DNA of 64,000 nucleotides from Protoeuglena noctilucae. Taxonomy: Eukaryota. A program made the translations under genes and the position numbers. The DNA lies in contig OY253671.1 in the NCBI GenBank assembly GCA_958009085.1, positions 1,116,001 to 1,180,000 of the forward strand. Reading direction: 5' to 3'. The notes beneath the pieces were generated by a model that worked only from the letters and a program-made list of their open reading frames with translations, was not told the DNA's origin and ran no database searches. Positions 45,337 to 64,000 of this stretch are shown here, one piece after another (positions within the stretch are counted from its first letter, which is position 1; every line of letters starts with the position of its first letter).

Positions 45337-48300
45337 CTACCGCCCCTTCTCCGTGCTGACCTGCATCAGCAGGCTGCGCAGGTCGAGCTTGACTTGCCCC
45401 TTGAGCAACTCAGCGAGGGCCTCCACCCCAGCATCGAACCGCTGGTACAGCTGCGACAGGGCCCGGCTTGACTCCACCATGAGGTCGATCGACTGCTGGA
45501 GCTGCACCAGGTTGGCCTGCGAGGGGAGCGGGGCACAAGGCGGTGCACTCGATGTGCGGGGACATGGTACTACTGTCTGTTGTAGACCCTTTAAGGGTCT
45601 GTACACGGTGTGTGATACAAACGGTGCACATGTTGCACCGTTCCGTCGCCCGCGGTGCCTCACCTGCACCTCCTGGTCTAGTGTCTCGGCCAAGGCGCCT
45701 TCTGCATCGGCCTGCTGCGCCTTCAGGACCTGGAGGTGGGCCAGGCGCCCTGCCATGGGCTCCAAGTTGCAGACGGAGGCCGCGAAAACCAGGGCGGCTT
45801 CCAGGAGGGTGTCCACGCGCGACATGATGGGTCGGGCGTCCTCCAGGAGCATCATGCGCGAGAGCAGGGCCGACAGCCACGCCTCGTGGGCCGCTGCGGG
45901 TGGGGAGGCGGTGGGAGTGGGCAAGGCAACAATGAGGGTGATGAAAAGGATTGGCCCGATCCGGGCTCTCCACAGATCCAGAGCAGTGCGGGCCTCACCA
46001 ATGATGCCCTGGAGGTCCTTGGCCGCTTCCACCTTGGCCAGCAGCTCGTACCACTGCGGGGCAGGGGACGGCGACAACAGCAGTCCTCGCATAGATGTCT
46101 GTGGGGTGAGAAGCACAGCCACCTCATGGATGCCTTACAGAAGCAGCAGCGGCAGTCCCCCCACGTACCTCGACCTCGATGACGTCGAACATCATGTACC
46201 CGAGGAGGCCCGAGACGAGTGCCGCCATGCGCGAGCGGATGAGGGTCGCCTGCTGCACCAGGGCCCCGTACCGACGCGTGAACTGAACCTCGGGGTCCGG
46301 GTCGCCGTCGTGGGCGCGGCGCGTCCTCGAGGACCGCAGAACGGCGTCGTTGGGCTTGAGGCCGCGCCAGGCCGCCCCCAGCGCCGCCTCGACCCGCTTG
46401 AGCTTCAGGAGCAGGGCCGACGCCCTCGCGTATTTGGCCATGCACTCGGGGGTGAGGACGGTCGACACGGGCGGCGAGACGCGGTACTGCAGGCGCACGC
46501 ACTCCCACCCGCTGGCGCCGTCGGCCGGCGCGAGGCTCACGCGCACGCACGACTGCACGAGCGCCTCGTCGGCCGACGCCGCCCCGGACGCCGACGCCGA
46601 CGCCTGCAGGGCGTAGTTGATGGCCCGCTGTAGCTGCATCTCCGAGATTTCCTTGGATGGCAGCGCCAGGTCCGGGCCCATGCCCTCCACGAGGTGCCCG
46701 GCGAAGTCGCTCTGCCCCAGCAGGAGGTAGCTCCGGACGCCCGCCAGGTGCCGCTCGAGTCGGAACTCCCCCAGCATCACGCGTTTCAGTCGCGCGTCCA
46801 GTCGCGACGCCACCTCCTCCACCAGCGACGCCATGGCTCGACCGGGGGCGCCTTCCTCCCCACCGTCCTGGGAGAGACGCGGGAGAGCGATGCATGAACA
46901 TCACGCTAACCTTCCCAAGCCCCACGCATGTCACGCCAGCCTCTCCAAGGCCCCTTCCTCGGCAGTGGCCATTCTTATTGCAGTTGCCTGTCGAAGCCCG
47001 CTCCCAGGCATGCCCCATGTGTCGGCAGCATCGCATTAATCCCTCACCTGCCGCTCCTCCCGTGTGACCAGCGCCTCCATGGCCTCCTGGAGGTCCCTGG
47101 CATCGTCGTCCCCGGCCCAGCCGTCGTCGCCGCAGCACGATCGCAGGAAGGTCACCGTCTTGCCCGCCCGGAGCACTGCCGCCGCCGTCCCGTCCGAAAC
47201 CAGCGGCGGGAGCATCTCGGGGACCAGGGCAAACCCGGACCGCCACAGGTCGAAGTCGCCGTCGTCGTCCCGGCCCTTCCGCCCCTCCCGCACAAAGAAC
47301 TCCCCGTGCGGGTCCTGCAGGGCGCCCCGGCAGCAAAAGGCCACCAGAGTCTCCCACATGGGACGTGCCACACGCCGCAGAGACTCCAGAACCAAGGCCC
47401 TTGCGGAGGGGTCGCCTTGCTTGCCCAGCGCCCCCAGGCGCTGCAGCAGGGCGCCGCCCTTGGACGTCGTCGCCAGGTCCGCCATCACCGCGAACAGTTT
47501 CATGCGCTGTGCCTGGTCGGACAGCCACACGGACAGCCGGCGCTGCAGGGGTGGACCGAGGGCGATGGTGGGCTCGTGGGGTATCGACCCGGCTGATGGG
47601 TCCACGCAAGAAAACTTCCCGATTCTTCGGACCAACTCGGCGCCTCGCCACATGCTACGCGCTACGTGCTGCGAGCACAGCAGCAGCTCACCAGCGTCAT
47701 GGCCGAGGGATGTCCTGCACCGTCCGCATTGGCGTCGCGTTCTGCGAGCGTGGCCTGCTCCTGGAGCACCGCGAGCATCCGGTAGTGCTCCGAGATTTCG
47801 TGCTGCAGCACGTCCTTGAGGGCACGCTGGGCCGACCCCGTGAGGCGAGCGTCTGAGAGGAAGTCCAGCACGCGCCGGAACAGCCAGCCCAGCTCGCCCA
47901 CGCTCTCCACGAGCGCCGCGGCGGGCGGAGAGACCCCCGGCGCGGGGACGCCCCGCAAGGCGTACCCCTCGCCCCCGGCACCAGCGGCGCGGCGCTGGCG
48001 GCAGACGAGCCGCCCGTCCACGCCCTGCCCCGCGAGGATGAGGTCGCGGACCAGCTGCCCCTCGATGCGCGCGAGGGCCGTCGACGCCTGGGCCTCGGCG
48101 ACCGCGTCGCGTGCTGCCCCCGCCACGTCGAGGGTGCGGGAGGGGCGGGGCGCCGCCAGCGCGCCTGCCTGGGCCCTGCGGGCGTGGACGCACCGGGTAC
48201 CGCGTGTTGATGCGCGATAGTCATATCGCACCGCTGGTGGGCGCCCGCTACGCCAACAGAGCTCAAGCCTCAGTCTGTCTCACCTGTTGTTGTGGACGTC

Positions 48301-50188: not shown

Positions 50189-53100
50189 ATGGCCGTGCGC
50201 GCAGTCCCCTACCACGCTATCAAGGGTCTTCTCGCGAATGAGGGCCGCTTCGCGTGCGGCAAATGCGGGGGTATGCAGCGGGTCGGAAGCGAAGGTTTGC
50301 AGCCCTTCGAGACGGAGGTGAGCGCCGCCTCTCGCGCTGGCCTCTTTGTTCGATGTGTGCGTAATGCGTTTCTAGACAACACACGAACGCGCTGCTATCG
50401 AAGACGCCCAGCTCGCGCGGCCACGCACGCAGGTGGACGCTCTGAGGAAGCAGCTGTTCACCGTGCTGGAGTACTGGTACGCGCGCTACGGCGTCGAGTT
50501 CAACAGCTTCCTAAACGAGGGCAACACGAACCTTTTGAAGAACCTCGGTTGGGACACGGACAGTGAGGGCCTGCATGGGATGCGACTCGTGACCAGCCCT
50601 GTTCGATTTGTCAAGACCCGCTGGCCCCTCCCGCGCTCCCAGGCCTTCTGGTGGGCGACATCCCCAACACTCCGGAGAACCGCGAGCGCATTCGGCTGCG
50701 GACGGTGCTCCATTCGCGGAGGTGAGGCACGCGTCTGCAGTGATGGGGCGTGCGAGGGTCGCGCATGTAGTTTTGCTTAGTCTCTCCCCAGCGCACGTGA
50801 CGTGACCCTGCTTGCCCGTCGCCTGCAGCGGAGGGCCGCACGGCCGCATCGGCGCGCCCGCTGCTGCAGCTGCATCCCAGGCGGGGGGCGCGGGCCCCGC
50901 TGGAGCCCCAGCCCCGGCGCCCGGCGGTGACCCCGGCGCTGCCGCCCCCGAGATCCCCGCCCCCCCGGACATGGGACAGTTCGAGGGGGACGAGGTGGAG
51001 GAGGTCGGGGAGGGCGAGCTCTACACGACCTACGGTGAGCGGAGGTTGCCTAACCGTCTCTGCAGGACTGGGTGGGATCCGCACCCCGCGCATATATTCG
51101 TGTGGCGATCTGCGACGCCGCCCGCGCGCTCCCCGAGCTGCAGTGCCCCAGAAGGTGACGGTCGGCAAGCCGCACCCGGACGCGGTGGTGGAGTCATCGT
51201 CCCTGGCCTCGGTTGTCCCGCCCGACGCCACAAAGCAGCACGAGCTGCTCATCAAGAAGTGCGTCGTCACGGGGAGCCTCAGCGCCCTGCAGCTCGAGAG
51301 CATCATCTACTCCCTCCAGCGCCACGAGCTGTTCCTCCCCGCCATCCAAGTCCACGTGAGTTCCGTCAGTGCCACCTGCAGCGCCAGGGCCGACCCCACG
51401 CTCACCTGCCCTGCTCAGGGCCTGTGGAGGCCGCGCTTGTGTGTTCTGAGGGCAGCATGGGGTCGCTGCTATCCTGCAAGTGACAACTTAGGGTCAGGCG
51501 TGGGACCTTGGGACACCCGGCCCCCACGCGCAGGACATCACTGCGCCTCCCGTGCTTGGGGAGCATCGGGCGGGTTTCTTCATTGGGGACGGCGCCGGGG
51601 TCGGCAAGGGCCGCACGATCGCGGGGATCATCTACGAAAACTACAAGCGCGGCCGCAAGAAGCACGTGTGGGTGTCGGTGTCAACGGACCTGGTGGTGGA
51701 CGCAGGTGTGACGCGGGGGCAGGCGTGGGGGTGTTGGGGCAAACGTGCGTGGGTCCCACGTGGCTTTCCTTGTTATCGATTCACACTCTGACTGGCGCCC
51801 TGCCCTCCCACCCGCAGAGCGCGACCTGAGGGACGTGGGTGCGACCCCGCTCATCCACCACCACCGCCTGATCCCCTTGCACAAGCAGCCCTACGGAGCC
51901 ATCCAGCCCTCCGAGGGCGTCCTCTTCTTAACCTACAGCTCCCTCACCTCGGGCAACGCCCGCCGGGAGACTCGGCTGCAGCAGATCGTGACGTGGTGCG
52001 GGGGTCCGTTATTTGAGGGCACCCTGGTGTTTGACGAGTGCCACAAGGCCAAGAACCTGTACCCGGAGAAGAGCGCCAAGCCCACCAAGGTCGGCCTGAA
52101 CGTCCTGATGCTCCAGAGGGCCCTGCCCCGGGCCCGCGTGGTCTACTGTTCTGCCACGGGCGCCACCGCCCCCCGCAACATGGGCTACATGGAGCGGCTG
52201 GGCCTGTGGGGCCCCGGGACGTCCATCCCCACCTTCGAGGACTTCCTGGGCACGCGGCAGGAGAAGGAGAGGGAGCAGCGCGACCCCAACGACCCCCGGC
52301 GCATGTATGGGCAGACGCCCGAGCGCGTGCCGTCGGTGGCGGGCAAGGGCGTTGGGGCCCTGGAGCTACTGGCCATGGACATGAAGGCCCGGGGCATGTA
52401 CCTGTGCCGCACGCTGGCCTACCAGGGCGCCGAGTTCTCCACGGTGGAAGTGCCGGTGGCCGGGCAGTATATGGAGATGTACAGCCGGGCGGCCGACCTC
52501 TGGGCCGACATCATCGACGTCTTCGAGAACGGCATTCGGGCAATCACCGACTTCGAGGTGCGGAACGCGATCGACGACGGCAACGGTGGTAACGGTGGTA
52601 ACGGCAACGGTGGCAACGGCAGCGCTGGTCCCAGCAGCGGTGGGGGCCGCGGTGGGGCACGGCGGGGGCGTGGCCGGGGTCGCGGGCGCGGGGCGCGCAA
52701 TCGCGACGAGAACCCGAACGGCATGGGCGAGGACGGCTTGGGAATGGACCCAGAGTTTGACGATGAGGAGGAGGCGGTGGAGGTGGCGGAGGGGCGGCCG
52801 GCGACTACCAGCAGCGGGCAGGCCTGGCGCATGATCTGGGCGACGCACCAGCGGTTCTTCCGCGCGCTGTGCATGTCTGCCAAGGTGCCGCGCTTACTGG
52901 AGCTGGCGCGGGAGGCGCTGGGGGCGGGGCACGCAGTGGTCGTTGGGCTGCAGTCGACGGGGGAGGCGAGGACCAACGACGTGGTTGCCAAGAAGGGAGA
53001 CGAGCTGGGCGATTTCGTGTCGGATGAGAGCGGGGCGGGTGGCGGCTGCTTCTCTGACGCTGCGATGTGCCTGCTGAGCTGCGACGCGCATGTCATGTCT

Positions 53101-56100
53101 CTCGCAAGCTGCGGGCACTGCTCTCTGTCTTGCCACGGCTCGCTGGGGACGCGAGAGCGCCCGCGCTGTCCTCCACGCACCCCTCGTGCGTCTTACTTTC
53201 ACCGAGCGCTTCTGTCTGCAGGGCCCCGGGAGCTCTTGCTGAACCTGATCGACAAGTACTTCCCCGTCTTCCCGAGCCCCTACGAGGAGGTCGCGGAGGA
53301 TGACGAGGAGGTCGAGCAGGAGGGCGCCCCTGCCGGCGACCGTGCGGGGCGTGCGGCCCGGGCCCGGGTGGGGCAGGCGGTGCGCGTGGAGGCGGAGACC
53401 GGCAGCGACTCCGAGGGGGGTGCCGGCGGGCGCGGCGCGGGGACCCAGGGCTCCGACTTCGAGCCAGAGGACGAGAGCGAGAGCGACATGACGGGTGGCG
53501 GTGCGTGGGGCTGGGCGGAGCGCCTTGGACCCTCGTGGCGCCTGTGCTGTGCCCCATGTTAACCACCCCACGCGGCGTTGGGGTCGATGCTTGATGCGTT
53601 GCAATCGTGCATTGCCCCGCCGTGTTGTATCGCAGGCTGGGTGCAGCTGCGCCAGCCGCGCCCTCGGGAGGTCAAGGCGAAGTTCGCCCGCCTGCCGCCC
53701 CACATCCTGGAGGAGATGGAGCGGCGTCATGACGAGTGGCTGGAGACCAAGAGGTTCTTCTTGCAGCGCGTCCAGGACCTGCAGCTGCCCTTCAACCCCC
53801 TGGACGAGATCATCGACGGCCTGGGCGGGCCCAACGCGGTCGCGGAGATGACGGGGCGCAAGGTGGGCTGCAAGCTCGTGCTTGGATTACGAACTGCTTG
53901 TGCGTGTCGGCATTACTAAAGCAGTGTTATTGTGTTATTACAGTGTCTCACGTCTCTGCTCCTTGCCTTTCCAGGGCCGTCTGATCAGGCAAGAGAACGG
54001 GGGAGTGCGCTTTGAGGCAAGGAACGCGTCTGGGCTGTCGGCAGTGACGTCGATGGACGCCATCAACATCAAGGAGCGGGACATGTTCCAGAAGGGCGAG
54101 GTGAGCGGCAGTTGGGGTGACAAGCGGGACGTGGTGAGCGGGGTTGGGGTGACGCTAGCGGGACAAGGTGAGCGGTGACTGGGCTGGCGCTTACAGAGCA
54201 GCAGTGGATGTGCTGCGTTTGGCAGTGAGGATTGGAGTTTTTGTGGACCGTGGCAGGCCTGTGACCCGGTTGGGGCTGTGGTCGTGTCACGGACGGACAC
54301 GGAGCCGCCCCTTCTCTTTCGCCTCACGCAGAAGCTGGTGGCCATCATTTCCGAGGCGGCGTCGGCGGGGATCTCGCTGCACGCCCACCGCAAGGCGGGC
54401 AACACGAGGCGGCGCGTGCACATCACCCTCGAGCTGCCCTGGTCGGCCGACAAGGCCGTGCAGCAGTTCGGGCGCTCGCACCGCGCCAACCAGGTGCAGG
54501 CGCCCGTGTACAAGCTCCTCTGCTCCAACATCGGCGGCGAGACGCGGTTCGTGGCGGCGGTGGCGGCGCGGCTGGAGTCCCTGGGGGCGCTCACGCAGGG
54601 CGACCGCAAGGCGGGTCCCATCCTGTCAGAGATCAACGTGCAGAACAAGTACGGCCGGCAGGCGCTGAGCAACCTCGTGAGCATCCTGCTGGGGGAGATC
54701 CCGGCCCGGGTGCTGCCCCGCGAGTGCATGCCCGAGAACGGAGGCATGTCGATGGCGGAGTGGGCCAACGAGGCCCGGTGGAGCCTCTGCTCCGTCAGGT
54801 GAGCCTCGCGCGGCGGATGAGATTGACTGCGCTGTTGGGCTTGGGTCTGGAAGGATGACACAGCGGTGGCTTGGTACACGCTGGGCTGTTGTTGCTCTTA
54901 ACCCAACGCCTGGCCTCGCAGCATGCTCACTGCGGCCACTGTCGCTCCCACAATGCCACCCCTGACCTGCTGCTACTGTTCTCCAGGCGCTTTAAGTACT
55001 CTGCTCCTCATGACACAGCACCTTCCCTGTCCCCCCAGGCACTTCAAGTACTCTGCCCCGCACGGCATGGAGGACCGCCAGCACTTGCGCCGGGAGATGG
55101 CGCCCCTCTCCTCCCGCGGCAACCCCATGATCGAGGACAAGTCACGCGTGTCGATCAGCAAAACCCTGAAGTCGCACGTCCCGCGCTTCCTCAACCGCCT
55201 CCTGGGGCTCAGGCCCGACGTCCAGGCGAGCAATGGGGTGCTGTGGGGTTGCATGTGGTTGCATGTGGTTACCTGCTCACAGCTGCCCGATTGCATCGGT
55301 AGATTCGCCCAGCGCCCTCCCTCCGCATCTCCCTTCGCCGCCCCAGCAACGTTCGAGCTGCCAATGAACACCCCCATCGCTCCCCGCTCCCTCAGGCCAC
55401 CCTGTTCGACTACTTCATCGCCTTGCTGGACTACGAGATCTCCAAGGCCAAGAAGGAAGGCACCTACGACGAGGGCATCATGGCACTGCTGGGGACCGAC
55501 GTGTTTCTGACAGCTGAGCCCCGCGTGGCCTACCGAGACGCGTCGTCGGGCGCCACCGCGCTGCTCTATCGCGTGATGGTCGACCGGGGGACGCCGTTCG
55601 AACTGGCGTGCCGCATCCGGTGAGCCATCGGTGATGATGATGATGGCACGGCGCATCGCTGGGACCTCGCAAGCTTGTTGACCTTGTGCATGGAGCTCTT
55701 GCATTCACCTCGACCTCCTGCAATGCACCCGGCGCGTCTGTGTAATTCTGTTGGCTGCGAACCCCGCACCATCTCTGTCGGCGCTGAGCCAAGTGCCCTA
55801 CCGAGCACCCTGCGCTCACCTTCCCCCGTCCCCCTCGCCTGTCGCAGAGACCAGGCCGTGGAGCGGGAGATGAGGGACCGGGAGGTGGACGAGGAGGAGG
55901 ACGACGAGGACCCCAACCGACCCCCAATGACGAGCTTCTATCGCACCAAGAAGAAGATCGTCGGGGGCCAGCACCTGGTCCTGCTGGGGTGCTTCCGCCG
56001 CAACTCCGCCACCCACGGCCTCTACGACGGTTTCTTCATCACACGCCCCGTCACGGGCACGCAGCCCAAGGCCTCGCGCGCCGCGGACATCCTGGAAATG

Positions 56101-58460
56101 TACGAGCCAGTCACGGACGCGGTCGCCAAGCGTATCTGGGACCACGCCTACACGGAGGCGGGGATGCCGCCGGCGGAGTGGGACGCCCTGCAGGCGCAGC
56201 TGCGGTGAGTGGGGTGGGGACGTGGGCAAAGCTGCGGTGCGTGGGGCGCCGTGTTGGGTGCAGCTGCGCTGAGTGGGGTGGGAGCGTGGGCAATGCTGCG
56301 GTGAATTTGGATGTCCTTGCAAGCAAAGCTGTGGTACATGAGCGTGACTGAGAGGGTTTCGTGTTTGCAGGGCCAGCGAGGGCGTGGGGGCTGAGCGGGA
56401 TGAGCCACAAGAGACGAAGGACGCGACTCCTGGGCAGGCGAAACGCAAGGCGAATGCGGACGGGCCAGAGGGCAGGGGCGCGAAGCGGGCCAAGGGCGCG
56501 GGGCCCAGCGGCGGTGCGGGGCCCAGCGGGGCGGCTGGCAATGCCGGCGGATACGTGTCGATCAGCGACGATGACGAGGAGATGAGCGAAGAGGAAGCGG
56601 AGATGAAGGCGAGGGAGGGCGGGGCACGCGCAAACACGTGATAGCATGTTGATAGCACGCCTGGCGACACGCTGGTAGCACCCGTGACCCTAACACCACG
56701 CGTTGCGTGTTGTAGGTGTGCCGCTCACTCGCTGCTTTTCTCCTGCAGAGAGTGGCTGCGCGGGCCACGACCGGCGACCTCATGCCCATCCCAGTCACGA
56801 AGTACACCCGCAATCGCATGCGCGAGTACTACCTCCTCGGCGGCGTCGTCATCCCCATCTGGGACCTGATCAACAACTGCCTCAAGCTGGGAGACACGCT
56901 GGTGGGGGGCGGGGCCCGCGGCTGATGATGTGTGGCATGGCTGAGCCGGGCGTCCGGGCTTGTCAGCACTTGCTGCCGATGCGTTGATTTATAATACCTT
57001 TGCTGAACACGTATCACCCCATTTGCGATGCAAGTAGAACAGCTCTCGTCGCGCCCCGCAGGCCTCGCGCCAGCTCCGGGTGGTGCGCGCCATCACGACC
57101 AAGGGCAAGCAGCAGAAGCTGATCGGCATCCAGATCCCCGAGAAGGGGTTAGAGCAGCTCCTGGAGGCCGGGCGCCGGCGGGCGGCAGAGCACGCGCAGG
57201 AGCTGTGAGTGCCGGGGCTGCCTAGCGCCCGCCACAGGGCGCCCGCACGCGCGAGGCTGAGCGAGCGGTCACAGGTTCGATCCCTCGCTACATCGCAGGG
57301 CGGTGCGTCGCGTGGCGGACATGCCCTCCGCGGAGGACCTGGAGGAGGCAGAGGCAGACGCCGTGGCTGCCCAGCAGGTGGAGGCAGAGGATGCGGCGAG
57401 GGTGGCGAGGGCGGCGGAGAGGGCGAGGGCTGCGGCAGATCTGGCAGACGACGACTCAGACGACTCAGACGACTCGGACAGCACCCAGGCTGGCGCGGGG
57501 CCGGCGGTGGTGGCGTCGCCGGACGGGGGCAAGCAGCGGACGCTCAACGGCTGGCTGCGGCGCGCCGGCAAGGCGGTCAAGAAGCCCTCGGAGGGCACGC
57601 CGGGGCCGCAGCCGGGCAGCGGGGCGGGAGGGTCCGGGGCGTCGGGCCAGCAGCCGAAGCGCAACGCCAAGAAATCAGGCGAGTGCAGGGAGTGCTGTTG
57701 GCATGCACTTGGTGTAGGTGCATCAGCAACTCATGCCATGCGCTGCGACCCAGTGCCCTCCCCAGCCGACCCCTGCCCGAGAGGTGTGTTGATGGTTGTC
57801 TGCGCTCGGCGTGCAGTCGGCAAGTCTCGGAAGGCGATTCTATCCGACGAGGACGATCTGTCGGAGGGAGACGAAACGTCAGAGGAGATCGAGGACGAGG
57901 TGATCGTGGAGAGCTCGAGCGAAGAAGAGGAGGTGGAGGAGCAGGAGAGCGACGGCGACGGCGACAGCGCGGGCAGCGGATCTGAGCCCGAGGAGGCGCC
58001 CAAGGCGACGAGCAGGGCATCGAGGGGGGCGGCGCGGGGGAGGGGGGCGCGCGGCCGCGGTGGGCGGGGCGGCGAGGACAGCGGGGGGAGGAGCGCGGGG
58101 CGCGGGCGGCGGGGCCGGGCCGCGGAGTCGGTACCGGAGGGCGTGCTCGCGCCCAGGGCGAACGGGCGCCCTCGGTCCGCGGCTCCGACGGGTGCCAAGC
58201 CGCCTCCGTGGGCCAGCAATGACGAGAGGAGCGAGAAGAGCGAGGCCGGCACGCGCGGCACGTCGCGGACGGAGTCGAGCCGCGCGAGCAGCGCCCGCGC
58301 GCAGCGTTCGGAGGCTGCTACGGTCGCCCCCAGCAAGCGGGTGTCGCGCCGCGCTGCGTCGGCGTCGGCGTCGGTGGAGGAGAAGAGCTTCACCCGGGCA
58401 TCCAAGGGGCGCCAGGCCCAGCCCAGCGCAACCATCATCTCCGTCAGCGACAGCGACTGA
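50189..58460 (+). CDS. Strawberry notch family SF2 helicase-like protein (SBNO/FGT1-like); extra 5' exons possible from about 49490
   Basis: [125 protein letters not shown] and [13 protein letters not shown]. Confidence 0.96.
52579..52700 (+). repeat. Coding low-complexity Gly/Asn repeat followed by an RG/RGG-rich tract
   Basis: (GGTAAC/GGCAAC)-type iterations encode GNGGNGGNGNGGNG, followed by [18 protein letters not shown], inside the SBNO exon. Confidence 0.8.
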
Positions 58461-58879: not shown

Positions 58880-61800
58880 ATGGGCGCCGGGGCAAGCAAG
58901 GCGAGAACGAGCCGCCGCTGGCCCATCCCATGCAAGCAGGGAGATGGACGCCGCGTTGCGAATGGAAGGCGCCATCGGTTGCGCTGGCCACATGTCGAGA
59001 TAAACTTGCTTGCATGTGACACACAAACAAACTTGCTTTCCTCGCAGGATGGCGGGTGCGTGAGCCGTCTGCATGTGAAGGCGTCGGTGGCTGATTTCCT
59101 CGCACGAGGCGCCCTGCATTGGCATTGCATGAACGCCCTGCATTGGCATGCGGCGCTGGTCTCCTCGCACGCGCGTCTCCGCCCCGGTCACCGAGTCCGG
59201 GTTATCCTCTCCCTCGCAACGCTCGACGCAGGGACGACAAGGTCGGGAAGGCGGAGAAAAAGATTCGCGAGAGCAACAAGTCCATGACCAAAGACGAAAT
59301 CTACGTCCAGGCACGCCTTTGCGCGGGCCGCATCGATCGCCAGGTAAGGGGGGGCGCGGGAGGAGCGTCAGCTGGATGGATGTGCTGTAGAGTGGGGCCG
59401 AGGCAGGAGCCTCACCTGGATGGCCAGCACTGCTGCAGGTGCGCTTCGACGTGACCGAGCTCGCCAGGCGCGACACGGTCCTCCTCTACGTGCCCTCCGT
59501 CAAGGACACCAAGGGAGGCACCTCAGGGTCCCTGTCGCTCACCGCTCTGCGCGTAATCTTCGCCGACACCAAGGGCAAGTCGAGCCTGCACATCGGCTGG
59601 GGCTGCGTGATGAGCCTCGAGCTCCAGGGCAAGGTCCTGAGCATGCTGGCCCAGGAAAAGGACAACAAGTCTCGATTCGAGTTCAAGTTCGAGTTGCCCA
59701 TGGCCAGCGACGTGGAGCGGGCCAAGGATGCGGTGCTGCTTTACCAGTGCTACAAGCGCACGGACCACTACCGGTAAGTGAGCCCACTAGGTTGCCGCAA
59801 CGCTGCCCTAGTGGCCAGGGCTGCAATGCACGTTCCCGACCTGCCTGCCGCGAGCAAGGATGGCTGCACTTGTCGCAGGACCCTGCGCCTTCGGCAGAAG
59901 GACGTCTTCCAGGGCGGCCAGCCCCGGCTGCTGCTGGGAGAGGGACATGTGGAAGAGTTCCGCTCTCCGGTCTACAACTTGGCGGGCAAAGGATCCACGC
60001 CCTCACCCGGCAAGATGTTCTTGACGGACGTCCGCGTGTTATGGCGCGCCGATCAGAACCACGAGTTCAACATATCGATTCCGATCACCAAGGCGAGTGG
60101 GGACTCGCCGAGCGAGCGCAAGAGAGTCACATTATGTGAGCCGACATGCGTGCCGGACAGGCTACCCTCCGCTGCTTCTCCCCAGATCGAGGGCGTGTCG
60201 ACGCGCACGACGGACTCGTCGGGCCTGGCGCTGGTGGTCAACACGGGCGCGGACGCGAGTAACCTCGTGCTTGGCTTCACGGCGGGGCGCAACGGCGGCG
60301 AAGAGCACCTGACCCGGGAGCTCTTTGCCTCGGTGCGCCAAAGGTGGAGGGCTAACGTCACACAGCCCCGCTTCGGCACCGAGGCGTATTTCGAGTGCGC
60401 CAAGGCGATCGGCGGCACGCTCCCCCAGTCGGACGAGGCGTTTCTGGCGGCCCTGGTGGCGGCGAGGAACGGCGTGGGGCTGCAGCTGCAGGCGAGCCTG
60501 GCCGCCCCAGGCGCAGGGACGTCCGGCGGCGCGTCGGGGAGCCAGGCGGCAGGGACCGCAGGCGAGGGCTCGGCAGAGGTCACCGCGACTGTGACGGCGG
60601 CAAAGGACATGGCGGCAGCTGCGGCCGAGGCGACAAAGGGGGAGGGGTCTGGCGCGGCGGCGGTGGCGGAGGCGGCAGCGGCGGCCAAGGACAACGCCAC
60701 GACGGTGTTTGCAGGCGAGTGGCGGGGCAGCGCGCGTGCATCGAGTGCGCAGGCGACAGAATGCACGGTCCCTTGGCCAAGAGTGTTCCTGCCCGCCGTC
60801 TGCTGCTGGACGGGTGGCTTTGTTGCAGGCGGAGAGACCGGGTGTGCTTGGGTGTCCTGCCCCCGCAGCAGCGACGGGGGACCCGCTGCTGACTGCGGCG
60901 CTGGGGACGATGCAGGGCCTCATCCAGGCGGGGTGCCTGGACCGCATCGTGAGCAGCGTGGGCAAGTGCCAGGAGCTGATGCAGGTGGCGGCGTGCATCG
61001 GCAAGGTCAAGGCGACCCTGGCCAACGTCCCCATCGTCGGCATGCTCGGCCCCGTGTGGGAGATCGCGGGTGGCATATTGGACGCCTGCGGCAAGTGCAT
61101 CGCGAACGCCCAGAACTGCTACAAGCTGGCCCGCCTGGTCCTGGTGGTCAGCACGTCGCTGTCTAAGGTGGCGCCCAAGAGACTCCAGGACTCGAAGCTG
61201 GCCGTGGAGGACCTCAAGGAGGCACTGCAGGCGGCGCTGGATCAAGTGCAGGCGAGGAAGGGGACCTGTGGGGGCTTGGCTAGCTACTAGCGGGCTTGCT
61301 ACTAGTGGGCCCTGGGGCGTGCACGTCTTGTGACCACGTCGTGCAAGTGCTTATGGGCTGTGCAATGGCGGGCACTCGACCCTTGCTGCGCCGCAGAGCT
61401 ACCAGGGCAAGGGCATGTTCACCAAGTACGTGTTTGCGAGCCAGCACAAGGACGCGTTCGAGGCTTGCGACGCGGACCTCCGGGCCAAGGCGAGCGGGGG
61501 GCAGTGGGTCGCATCACGTCTAGCATCGTGCCGTGCCTGTTTCGCGTTGGTCCATCGGCGCTGGCGTCACGTCAACGCGGTCCCGACCTAGCCCTGCGCG
61601 CAGTGGCAGGGCTTGGCGAATGACATCGTGCTGCAGGGCGCGCCGAGCGACGCCAGGTACGAGGAGGACGCGAGGCTGAGGGAGGCGATGGTGAAGGCGG
61701 CAGGCACGGACCAGGCGGGCAAGGCCTGGGAGGTGCTGAAGGACGACCCCGCGGCGCAGGACAGGCTGCTCGAGGCGCTGGGCGTCAGCCACCAGGCGAG

Positions 61801-63892
61801 AGAGGCGTGCATGTTTGGAGAGCCTCTCACATACCACACGGCACAGCGCACATCATGCAAGTCACAGAGTTGATCTAACAGGTTCCCTCGTGCGTGCGTC
61901 GTGGGTCGTGACTGCGCGTCGTGACTGCCGCTGCTGCGCGCAGATGGTGGTCCAGGCCGTGAAGGCCCACATGGAGCGTGCGCTGAACAAGAACAAGTCC
62001 TCGATGCGCCGGGTCATCCAGGAGACGATCCACGACAGCCTGGAGGCCTTCCAGGCGGTGCTGGGGCAGCTGACGACCACGCAGCTGACGACTGCGGACG
62101 GCCCGAAGGACATCAAGCACACGACCGAGGCGCGGGTGGATGAGTGGGCCGCCCCGCTGATCGAGAGCGTTACGGACAACTTCGCGGCCGACCGGCTCCT
62201 GGGATCCGGCGGCTTCGCGAAGGTCTATCGGGCGACGGTCGCGGGGTTCCGGGGCAAGCGGCGCGACGTGGCGGTGAAGCGCTTCTTCATCCAAGACGAG
62301 AGCGCCGTCGAGGAGCAGGTGCGGTTGCGTGAAAAGAGTGACACTCGCGGCTCATGCAAGAGGGTCTGGGTGCGCATGTGGTGGTTGCATGCGGTGCTTG
62401 CAAGGCAGTGCAGTGTGAAGAAGGGGTGTCCGGATGCGATAGCCACATGTGAGGCCCCGTACTTGATACCCAGTACTGGCTGCGCCCTCCCTGCTCCGCA
62501 GATTTTAAACGAGGCGGAGATCCTCGGGACCCTGAAGCACGCGGGCATCGTGCGGCTGCTGGCCCTGTGCTGGAAGCCGGCCTGTTTGGTGTACGGTGAG
62601 CATGTGGCGGGCGAGCGTGGATAGCAGGAAGACAACATATTGATGGAGACTATCGTTGACCAATGACCCCAAGCGAAGGCCACATTGCACAGCGCCTCGT
62701 CTCCGCCGCAGAGCTGTGCGAGGGCGGCACGGTGGCGGACAGGCTGGAGGGGCGGCAGGGGGGCCTGGGGTGGCAGGCGCGCGTGCGTGTGCTGCGAGAG
62801 ACGGCCGTGGCGCTGCAGTTCATGCACTCGGCGCGCGGAGAGGGCGCTTTCTCCAAGGGCGTCTATCACAGGGACATCAAGCCCGCCAACCTGCTCCTTT
62901 CGGTGCCGGGAGACGACGCCAGCGTCAAGCTGGCCGACTTTGGCGTGGCGAGGGTCGTGGATGAGGACAGGGAGGCAGGCGCCAGTGTTACTACCCGTTT
63001 GATGGGAACAAGCGCGTACATGGTGAGCGGTGGTGTCAATTGACAAAGCGGGTGCGCAAGTTTGGGCGCCGTGTGCTGTGGGCAGCCGCCGTAAGGGCTT
63101 GCAACATGCAACTTTATCACATAACTCGCCGCGCAGGACCCCGTCTACGTGCGCACACGCAAGTACGGCCCGCACTGCGACGTGTACTCGCTCGGGGTGG
63201 TGATGGTGCAGCTGGCGACGGGGTGCTCGGGCCCCCGGGCGCTGGTGGTGGCCGAGGATCCCTCCGGGGCGACCCCAGACGCTAAGGCCGGCGACTGGAT
63301 GGCGGCGGTGTTCACGGAGGTGCTGCAGATGGGCCTGCGGTGCATGCGCGACCGCCCCGACGACCGCCCCTCGCTGCTGGAGGTGATTGAGTCGCTGCGG
63401 GCGGCGGAGAAGGCCGGGGCCGAGGGCGACGGGACGCTGCTGGCGACAACGGCGGAGATCCGGAGGCGCCACGAGGAGCACGAGCGGCTGAAGCAGGCGC
63501 TGCTGGCGGAGCAGAGCAAGGTGCGGGGCAGGTCTAGAGGGCATGCAGGGTGCGGGTGGTGCGAGGCGAAGCATGGCGGGTGCGGGCAGAGGGCGGACAG
63601 AGGGTGGGGCGGTGCTACGCAAAGCATGGGCGGAGCAGCGGGGTTTGTTTGCATCGCGAACCTCCGCCCATCTGCGCATCCCTCGCCCCGCTGTTGACCC
63701 CCACACATGCCCAAACAAGCCATCCCATTTGATTGCGCGTCACGCCATGCCGCCTCGCGTACGCAGTTGGAGGCGCAGCTGCAGGCGGCGCAAGAGGCGG
63801 AGAAACTGGACGAGGAGCGTCGGCTTATGGAGGAGAAACTGGCAGAGATGAGGAGGCAGCTGGAGGAGAGGACCCGGGGTGCCGGGGCCAAG
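58880..63892 (+). CDS. Multidomain protein: N-myristoylation motif + BBS5-like double PH + MLKL/HeLo-like helical domain + IRAK/Pelle/RLK-type kinase + coiled coil (probably continues beyond window)
   Basis: Exons checked by hand for phase: 58880-58900, 59048-59055, 59232-59343, 59439-59773, 59879-60092, 60186-60714, 60869-61251, 61398-61489, 61604-61795, 61944-62318, 62502-62595, 62712-63023, 63137-63520, 63767-63890. No stop codon falls between the domains. Kinase motifs: LGSGGFAKVY, VAVK, HRDIKPAN, DFG, GTSAYMDP and DVYSLG. Confidence 0.85.
59330..60385 (+). other. BBS5-like double PH domain within the kinase gene
   Basis: DRQVRFD, VKDTKG, LRVIF, IGWGCV, SRFEFKF, YRTLRLR, PRLLLGE, VYNL, GKMFLTDVRVLWRA..NHEFNISIP, GLALVV, VLGF and QPRFG occur in the same order as the remembered BBS5 motifs (DRDVRFD, EDTKG, TRFEFIF, YRDFKLR, FNVSIP, GLALVI, VLGF, PIFG). 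Confidence 0.88.
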
Positions 63893-64000
63893 TGAGGGGC
63901 CCTGGACAGTCCAAGGGTTTGTTTGTGATCATGCGATGGTGTGCAATGGGCTCTCGGGTCCTGTCGATGTAACTCAGTTCCGCTGTGTTCGTTGCGTGTT

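Follow-up and report, generated by a model that had tools for sequence, protein, structure and literature searches.

Proteins that join an MLKL-type helical bundle to a functional kinase have been described in wheat relatives and among wheat resistance genes. In Pm13/MLKL-K of Aegilops longissima, an MLKL_NTD is fused to a functional RLK/Pelle kinase (PMC10951266, PMC11297308), and 714 MLKL_NTD-kinase proteins were reportedly retrieved from Poaceae and Arabidopsis (PMC10951266). Cell death triggered by Pm13 is reported to depend on kinase activity, a fragment comprising only brace and kinase kills cells in a manner that requires kinase activity, and self-inhibition with dimerisation-dependent autophosphorylation has been proposed for MLKL-K (PMC11297308). 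MLKL-Ks are stated there to occur in Poaceae only. The wheat protein R3AK, a helper MLKL, similarly combines a four-helix bundle (4HB) with a kinase that has conserved catalytic motifs, and its 4HB is said to execute cell death (bioRxiv 10.64898/2026.08.07.743466). Among protists, a survey of 67 species is reported to have found no homologues of the necroptosis machinery (PMC7539657). Here, we describe a kinase-fusion gene on the + strand of a 64,000-nucleotide stretch of DNA from the marine alga Protoeuglena noctilucae (assembly GCA_958009085.1, contig OY253671.1, positions 1,116,001 to 1,180,000; hereafter "the window"). The explanation that we favour, and hold with about even confidence, is that the gene encodes a soluble fusion protein of 639 amino acids that works in a Pm13-like manner and comprises a divergent MLKL_N-like bundle, a linker, an active-looking kinase of the RLK/Pelle-IRAK type and a coiled-coil-like tail.

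The gene is real, spliced and expressed from the + strand, because RNA contigs skip all seven of its introns at the predicted borders, allowing for one to four ambiguous letters. The runs compared were X1, X2 and X3, which are marine metatranscriptomes from one study and two samples, and X5, which is of DNA type. Counting the seven joints within the gene and one further joint upstream, X1 shows 8 of 8, X2 6 of 8 and X3 5 of 8, with exon 1 partly uncovered in X2 and X3. X5 shows none of the eight and carries the stretch whole and unspliced. The comparison of these runs listed no base differences. The first three introns are of the GC-AG type, with the donor context AG/GCGAG (the slash marks the splice site), and introns 4–7 are of the GT-AG type. 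The initial annotation, made from the DNA letters and their open reading frames (ORFs), had placed the gene at 60990..63400; a + strand gene does lie there, but its coding sequence (CDS) is larger and is spread over eight exons (Table 1).

The G+C content of the window is 64–72% throughout. Read with translation table 11, the region splits into many overlapping ORFs, and the kinase motifs fall into several + strand fragments between GT/GC...AG intervals. We reject a bacterial reading, as the ORFs obtained with table 11 are mere pieces of exons and RNA confirms the introns. Coding on the opposite strand was rejected as well: none of the 10 minus-strand ORFs of at least 110 amino acids over the gene has a Pfam match at E ≤ 1e-4, and it is the + strand that carries the splice signals. 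A tblastn search found no paralogues of the kinase-fusion gene within the window, and a metagenome scan gave 546 pattern matches, none of which was confirmed.

The profile matches place the gene product among the eukaryotic protein kinases (PF00069 / PF07714). Here, as in the PDB searches and the AlphaFold2 (AF2) modelling described below, the queries taken from the gene were single exons or pieces of exons. Exon 6 alone matches the Pfam family Pkinase with an E value of 8.3e-15 (55.3 bits, the cut-off being 31.7), and the kinase motifs are thus far beyond chance. Exons 4, 5 and 7 add collinear pieces of PK_Tyr_Ser-Thr, covering profile positions 4–36, 49–79 and 176–258, respectively. Every kinase motif listed in the initial annotation was recovered in the + strand coding sequence of the spliced product. 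Two of them, CLVYE and GTSAYMDP, arise only through splicing, and both of the joints concerned are seen in spliced RNA contigs. The glycine loop, the β3 lysine, the αC glutamate, the arginine and aspartate of HRD, the catalytic asparagine, the DFG aspartate, the subdomain IX aspartate and the subdomain XI arginine are all present. Since an arginine precedes the catalytic aspartate, the kinase belongs to the RD type. Its activation segment comprises 32 residues, six of which are serine, threonine or tyrosine. In line with the earlier proposal of an active-type RD kinase rather than a pseudokinase, the catalytic residues and the Pkinase match point to a canonical-looking and apparently catalytically competent enzyme.

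The nearest solved relatives of this kinase are consistently of the RLK/Pelle-IRAK type, judging from the PDB sequence matches of exons 4, 6 and 7, which agrees with the affinity suggested at the outset. For exon 4, plant receptor kinases account for 17 of the 18 matches at E ≤ 1. The best of these is FERONIA (E 0.0023), whose alignment spans the juxtakinase stretch and the glycine loop. Exon 6 matches ScRIPK and a lectin RLK best and IRAK4 almost as well, but CaMK, NEK2 and PknB also score within about 10-fold. Exon 7 matches only plant RLK/RLCK chains at E ≤ 0.01 (5 of 5). The gatekeeper is a tyrosine, a putative hallmark of IRAK/RLK kinases, and the AGDW motif, which may be a mark of U-box/RLCK-IX kinases, is present. 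At the level of whole proteins, the search with exon 6 returned six kinases with 37–48% identity that have only the kinase domain in common with the algal protein, and none of them is annotated with MLKL_N. From the 704 candidates in a search for longer proteins homologous to exon 4, the sole one recovered was the window's own ORF.

The initial annotation had further described the kinase motifs as all intact. This is true of the lysine, the glutamate, HRD, the asparagine and DFG, but it overlooked the APE glutamate, which is replaced by valine: the sequence reads DPVY in place of DPEY or APE. This substitution weighs against an active kinase and could impair it, in which case the domain might be weak or dead and serve as a scaffold or switch, like the pseudokinase domains of MLKL. 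RKS1, an atypical kinase that is among the best PDB matches to exon 7, has DPLY at the aligned place. However, the subdomain XI arginine, with which the APE glutamate pairs, is kept, and the glycine loop and the other catalytic residues named above are present as well. Moreover, pseudokinases are reported to be defined by three sequence criteria, and loss of the APE glutamate alone is not one of them (PMC13519141). We therefore consider a weak or dead kinase quite improbable, and we retain an active-looking kinase as the preferred reading.

In contrast to the kinase, the N-terminal domain is recognised mainly through its relatives. AF2 predicted four helices for exon 1, at residues 8–37, 41–61, 67–87 and 93–113 (pLDDT, for predicted local distance difference test, 56.6), and the models of exon-1 pieces were all-helical at low confidence (pLDDT 56.6 and 64.4). 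With exon 1 as the query, HMMER was run exhaustively against 1.84 billion representatives and gave three matches: the window's own ORF and two proteins, P0002 and P0003. P0002 is the sole clear homologue (E 7e-21, 47% identity). Its best Pfam family is PF22215, MLKL_N (cd21037 in CDD), at E 0.018, with residues 38–106 aligned to positions 1–73 of the 142-position profile. It is thus the domain's first half that is matched, up to the end of the exon. MLKL_N is also the best Pfam family of P0006, a longer form of P0002 (E 0.023). The position of the P0002 match fits a domain that is preceded by one extra helix and whose second half lies in exons 2–3. Presumably, exon 1 supplies the first half of an MLKL_N-type bundle, and exon 2 probably the second half.

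The ESM Atlas offers a further lead. There, exon 1 is nearest to clusters of short helical proteins from fungi (Mucoromycota and Basidiomycota; scores of 0.95 and 0.94), and six matches of at least 0.9 belong to a set in whose cluster 10% of the members carry MLKL_N. Plant MLKL_N/MCAfunc clusters score lower, at 0.80–0.83. Taken with the Pfam result for P0002, this makes a relationship of the N-terminal domain to MLKL_N moderately probable. The third exhaustive match, P0003, was discounted as a relative of exon 1: it is an internally repeated protein of 215 amino acids with E 3.7e-4, and blastp gave E 0.014–0.044. It matches residues 16–53 of exon 1 three times, weakly, and is probably a spurious or repeat-derived ORF. 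A search for longer proteins homologous to exon 1 yielded none among 759 candidates.

Several results weigh against an MLKL-type N-terminus. Exons 1–3 themselves, each queried by itself, have no match to MLKL_N, HeLo or RPW8 in Pfam, even at E ≤ 10, and the MLKL_N matches of the homologues, at 15 bits, stay below the cut-off of 27. PDB searches gave nothing relevant for exon 1 (one match, E 8.6), profile A1 (one match, E 2), exon 2 (three anti-CRISPR matches, E 0.59–4.4) or P0002 (four matches, E > 1). With two partial models of low confidence, Foldseek gave nothing that reached E ≤ 0.001, and VIA ranked talin highest, with a Z score of 10.4. The folds matched by these models are generic bundles only (copper-storage proteins, talin rods and designed bundles), and MLKL is absent among the matches listed. 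Furthermore, the calibration of the Atlas flags the family as "probably wrong": it is common to 3 of the 10 best named matches, and the recognition value of 2126 is below 2300.

These results suit a different explanation, namely an ordinary cytoplasmic kinase of the RLK/Pelle-IRAK kind that signals routinely by dimerisation. Its N-terminus would then be a lineage-specific helical or coiled-coil scaffold that is unrelated to MLKL and includes no membrane-attacking domain. The scarcity of exon 1 homologues also fits such a scaffold, as only two of the matches in the exhaustive search are real relatives and one of these is the window's own ORF. If this were the case, the protein would simply be a plant-like cytoplasmic kinase of modest interest. 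On the other hand, MLKL_N had been proposed beforehand, and it was this one of 24,736 Pfam models that topped the matches of the homologue, starting at profile position 1 and running to the exon end. Moreover, several independent Atlas clusters carry MLKL_N, and the domains follow each other in the same order as in MLKL and MLKL-K. We consider an MLKL-unrelated scaffold rather unlikely and continue to prefer the divergent MLKL_N-like bundle. For the initial annotation, this means that the MLKL-like N-terminus is weakly upheld by the homologue's PF22215 match and the Atlas leads, but not by the protein's own exons, and that the fold searches are uninformative. The proposed layout was borne out: a helical N-terminal region is followed by the kinase and then by a coiled-coil-like tail.

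This tail is charged, coiled-coil-like in sequence and about 70 residues long. The last 84 residues of the protein are rich in glutamate, alanine, leucine and arginine, and the last 70 include only two prolines or glycines. Pfam gives weak coiled-coil matches here, such as PUMA_CC with E 0.0056. A complex prediction with two copies of the exon 8 peptide scored 0.05 against a mark of 0.32, a result that says nothing on pairing either way.

Put together, the protein would consist of four parts. A helical N-domain at about residues 40–180, with one extra helix before it, is most likely a divergent MLKL_N/four-helix bundle of the HeLo-like kind. A helical linker of about 100 residues would take the position of the MLKL "brace". 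The competent-looking RD serine/threonine kinase of the RLK/Pelle-IRAK type would span residues ~290–560, and the charged tail would complete the chain. By analogy with Pm13 and other plant MLKL-Ks, we infer that the resting protein may be autoinhibited through contacts of the N-domain or brace with the kinase. Oligomerisation through the brace or the coiled coil could then lead to autophosphorylation of the activation loop. As an output, the helical bundle might be released onto membranes, or downstream targets might be phosphorylated, in either case conveying a signal of stress, infection or cell death.

Immediately upstream, a reading frame on the same strand encodes BBS5 (Bardet-Biedl syndrome 5). 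Three matches to the BBL5 profile lie in one frame, with E values of 1.2e-9 (profile positions 17–132), 1e-12 (132–198) and 0.0057 (202–267), and the homology reaches to about 60405. The presence of BBS5 implies a flagellate stage. This region may be a gene of its own upstream of the kinase, or else the N-terminal portion of a fusion with it. In the latter case, one long polypeptide would run from BBS5 through an alanine/glycine-rich linker and the helical domain into the kinase and end with the coiled coil. The kinase would then be associated with the flagellum or the BBSome instead of being free in the cytosol; such a protein would fit either view of the N-domain. A fusion is suggested by an X1 RNA contig (contig 1, 1870 nucleotides), which starts at least 491 nucleotides upstream of 60500, runs through 60500–60710 and crosses the GC-AG joint 60714/60869 into exons 1–6. 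The BBS5 frame is also open from 59778 across this joint to the ATG at 60910, a total of 326 codons with no stop before the donor, and the BBS5 homology lies in the frame so joined.

Yet the joint comes from a single contig of a single run, and a contig across two genes does not prove one transcript. Met1 and Gly3 of the kinase protein are conserved in P0002, where the gene caller places the start as well, which speaks against a fusion. Besides, at 67% GC it is not unusual for a frame to stay open over about 90 codons. If a candidate donor CAG/GCGAGC at 60491 were used with that acceptor, BBS5 would end at its own stop (read by hand, with no RNA support). A third reading is a kinase transcript with an untranslated first exon that overlaps the end of BBS5. 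We regard the fused polypeptide as possible but somewhat unlikely, and take the 639-residue protein starting at the kinase ATG as the preferred product.

Two observations concern the sequence between BBS5 and the kinase. The unused candidate donor just named (60484–60497) is of the AG/GCGAG type and lies right at the end of the BBS5 homology. With the acceptor at 60869, it would lead to a TGA at 60890–60892, 18 nucleotides before the kinase ATG, according to the hand reading that has no RNA support. In the alanine/glycine-rich linker, the short GC-rich stretch 60654–60685 is a dispersed simple repeat; further contigs of the DNA run match it as well, and it gives rise to loose ends in RNA and DNA contigs.

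GC-AG introns make up an unusually high share in this region. They account for four of the eight introns confirmed by RNA (60715–60868, 61252–61396, 61490–61603 and 61796–61943), all with the donor AG/GCGAG. Shares of 56% have been reported in Emiliania huxleyi (PMC4028052) and of 14–17% in pelagophytes (bioRxiv 10.1101/2024.10.30.620910). The share in this region is therefore closer to that of E. huxleyi than to that of the pelagophytes, although the kinase looks plant-like. The genes near the kinase-fusion gene are ordinary eukaryotic ones and are listed with the other features in Table 1.

Table 1. Coordinates of the kinase-fusion gene, its sequence motifs and neighbouring features in the window. 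A slash marks a splice site or an RNA joint; aa, amino acids; nt, nucleotides.
Feature	Position	Strand	Remarks
Eight-exon gene model	CDS 60910-63895	+	1920 nt, giving 639 aa; one terminal stop
Exon 1 (aa 1-114)	60910..61251	+	Begins at ATG; N-terminal helices; ANAQNCYKLAR at 61102-61134
Intron 1, GC-AG, 145 nt	61252..61396	+	Donor context AG/GCGAG; RNA joint 61251/61397 in X1, X2 and X3
Exon 2 (aa 115-145)	61397..61489	+	Further helix; FASQHK at 61433-61450
Intron 2, GC-AG, 114 nt	61490..61603	+	RNA joint in X1 and X2
Exon 3 (aa 146-209)	61604..61795	+	End of N-terminal domain, then start of "brace"-like helical linker
Intron 3, GC-AG, 148 nt	61796..61943	+	RNA joint in X1, X2 and X3
Exon 4 (aa 210-334)	61944..62318	+	Linker, RLK-type juxtakinase stretch, Gly loop, VAVK
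Exon 5 (aa 335-366)	62502..62595	+	αC NEAE; gatekeeper Tyr in CLVY/E
Exon 6 (aa 366-469)	62712..63022	+	Hinge, HRDIKPAN, DFG, activation segment
Exon 7 (aa 470-597)	63137..63520	+	DPVY, DVYSLG, AGDW, DRPS, then start of charged helical tail
Exon 8 (aa 598-639 and stop)	63767..63895	+	Coiled-coil-like tail
Gly loop GSGGFA	62202-62219	+	Located in spliced product
VAVK (β3 Lys)	62268-62279	+	Located in spliced product
NEAE (αC Glu)	62508-62519	+	Located in spliced product
CLVYE (gatekeeper Tyr)	62583-62713	+	Split by intron 5; RNA joint 62595/62712
HRDIKPAN	62867-62890	+	Located in spliced product
DFG	62936-62944	+	Located in spliced product
GTSAYMDP	63005-63142	+	Split by intron 6; RNA joint 63022/63137
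DPVY (APE position)	63137-63148	+	Val where Glu expected
DVYSLG	63179-63196	+	Located in spliced product
AGDW	63287-63298	+	Located in spliced product
DRPS (subdomain XI Arg)	63362-63373	+	Located in spliced product
BBS5 coding exons, then Ala/Gly-rich stretch without stop	59439..60714	+	Pfam BBL5 (PF07289)
Upstream GC-AG intron, 154 nt	60715..60868	+	Joint 60710>60865 with 4 ambiguous letters; X1 only
Gamma-tubulin complex component exons	45340-48279	-	GCP_N_terminal E 1.2e-29, GCP_C_terminal E 9.9e-34
Strawberry-notch-like helicase exons	50801-56205	+	AAA_34 E 3.9e-66, Helicase_C_4 E 4.4e-57, SBNO E 2.6e-7

Kinase-active MLKL-like proteins have been described only from grasses, and among the matches listed by full-text literature searches, assessed by titles and abstracts, none describes an algal MLKL-like kinase. 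If the favoured explanation is correct, active kinases were coupled to HeLo/MLKL-type bundles on more than one occasion, and the algal protein is a candidate executor of regulated cell death in marine phytoplankton. The in-frame splice from BBS5 is a separate oddity. In the most far-reaching case, which we judge a long shot, a marine alga would have independently built a one-protein module resembling necroptosis, with an MLKL-type membrane-attacking bundle, its own active RLK/Pelle kinase and a coiled coil, and would also transcribe, and perhaps translate, this module fused to BBS5, the BBSome subunit that binds phosphoinositides. A death or alarm kinase would then sit at the flagellar membrane of a phytoplankter that forms blooms.

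When comparing the algal protein with animal MLKL, from which the idea of a killer domain derives, the kinase fold is alike, and the putative helical bundle and the brace-like linker would correspond to the bundle and brace of MLKL. Whereas MLKL is a pseudokinase activated by RIPK3, the algal protein has HRD, DFG and the other motifs intact in a kinase of RLK/Pelle-IRAK-like type. The Arabidopsis proteins AtMLKL1–3 likewise combine a kinase-like domain with a brace and a bundle of the HeLo-like kind and are reported to act in immunity, but their kinase part is described as a pseudokinase and their N-domain is of the DUF1221 class. The pseudokinase character of MLKL in the strict sense (animal MLKL and AtMLKL) is thus not apparent in the algal sequence, and we advise against classifying the protein as an orthologue of MLKL. 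The initial annotation had regarded the pseudokinase nature of plant MLKLs as settled. This holds for the AtMLKLs, but Pm13/MLKL-K and R3AK are reported to keep their catalytic residues.

On the kinase side, IRAK4, Pelle, RLCKs (ScRIPK and BSK8) and RLKs share the RD type with the algal protein, include the nearest solved kinases for the three kinase exons compared and, in FERONIA, the aligned juxtakinase stretch. However, none of them has an MLKL-like N-domain together with a coiled-coil tail, and they have APE or DPE where the algal kinase has DPV. On the side of the N-domain, fungal HeLo/HELLP proteins and the MLKL-like effector domains of basidiomycete NLRs are of interest, as the nearest Atlas clusters are fungal and one has MLKL_N members; any relation to the algal domain is putative. 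In the fungal proteins, the fusion partners are amyloid motifs or NLRs and not an active kinase.

R3AK resembles the algal protein in a kinase with conserved catalytic motifs and, if the algal N-domain is MLKL_N-like, in its 4HB, and the α1 helix of its 4HB is reported to be needed for cell death. Unlike the algal gene, which has no known partner, R3AK is reported to pair with an NLR, and its kinase-site mutant is autoactive. The closest likeness in architecture is to Pm13/MLKL-K, which has the MLKL-type helical bundle, the helical brace and an RLK/Pelle-type serine/threonine kinase with all key catalytic residues in the same order, the MLKL_NTD identity of the algal domain being sub-threshold. 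The likeness is one of architecture: the algal N-domain is far more divergent, and two additions set the algal protein apart, an extra helix at the N-terminus and the C-terminal coiled-coil-like tail of ~70 residues. An origin independent of the Poaceae MLKL-Ks is likely, because these are said to be confined to Poaceae and the algal host is marine; common descent with the Poaceae clade is unlikely, since the RNA comes from marine metatranscriptomes. The idea of a one-component system is already in print for grasses, as the sources cited above report. Thus, the algal gene presents an MLKL-K-like architecture and not a new principle, and its novelty may lie in the algal host and the coiled-coil-like tail.

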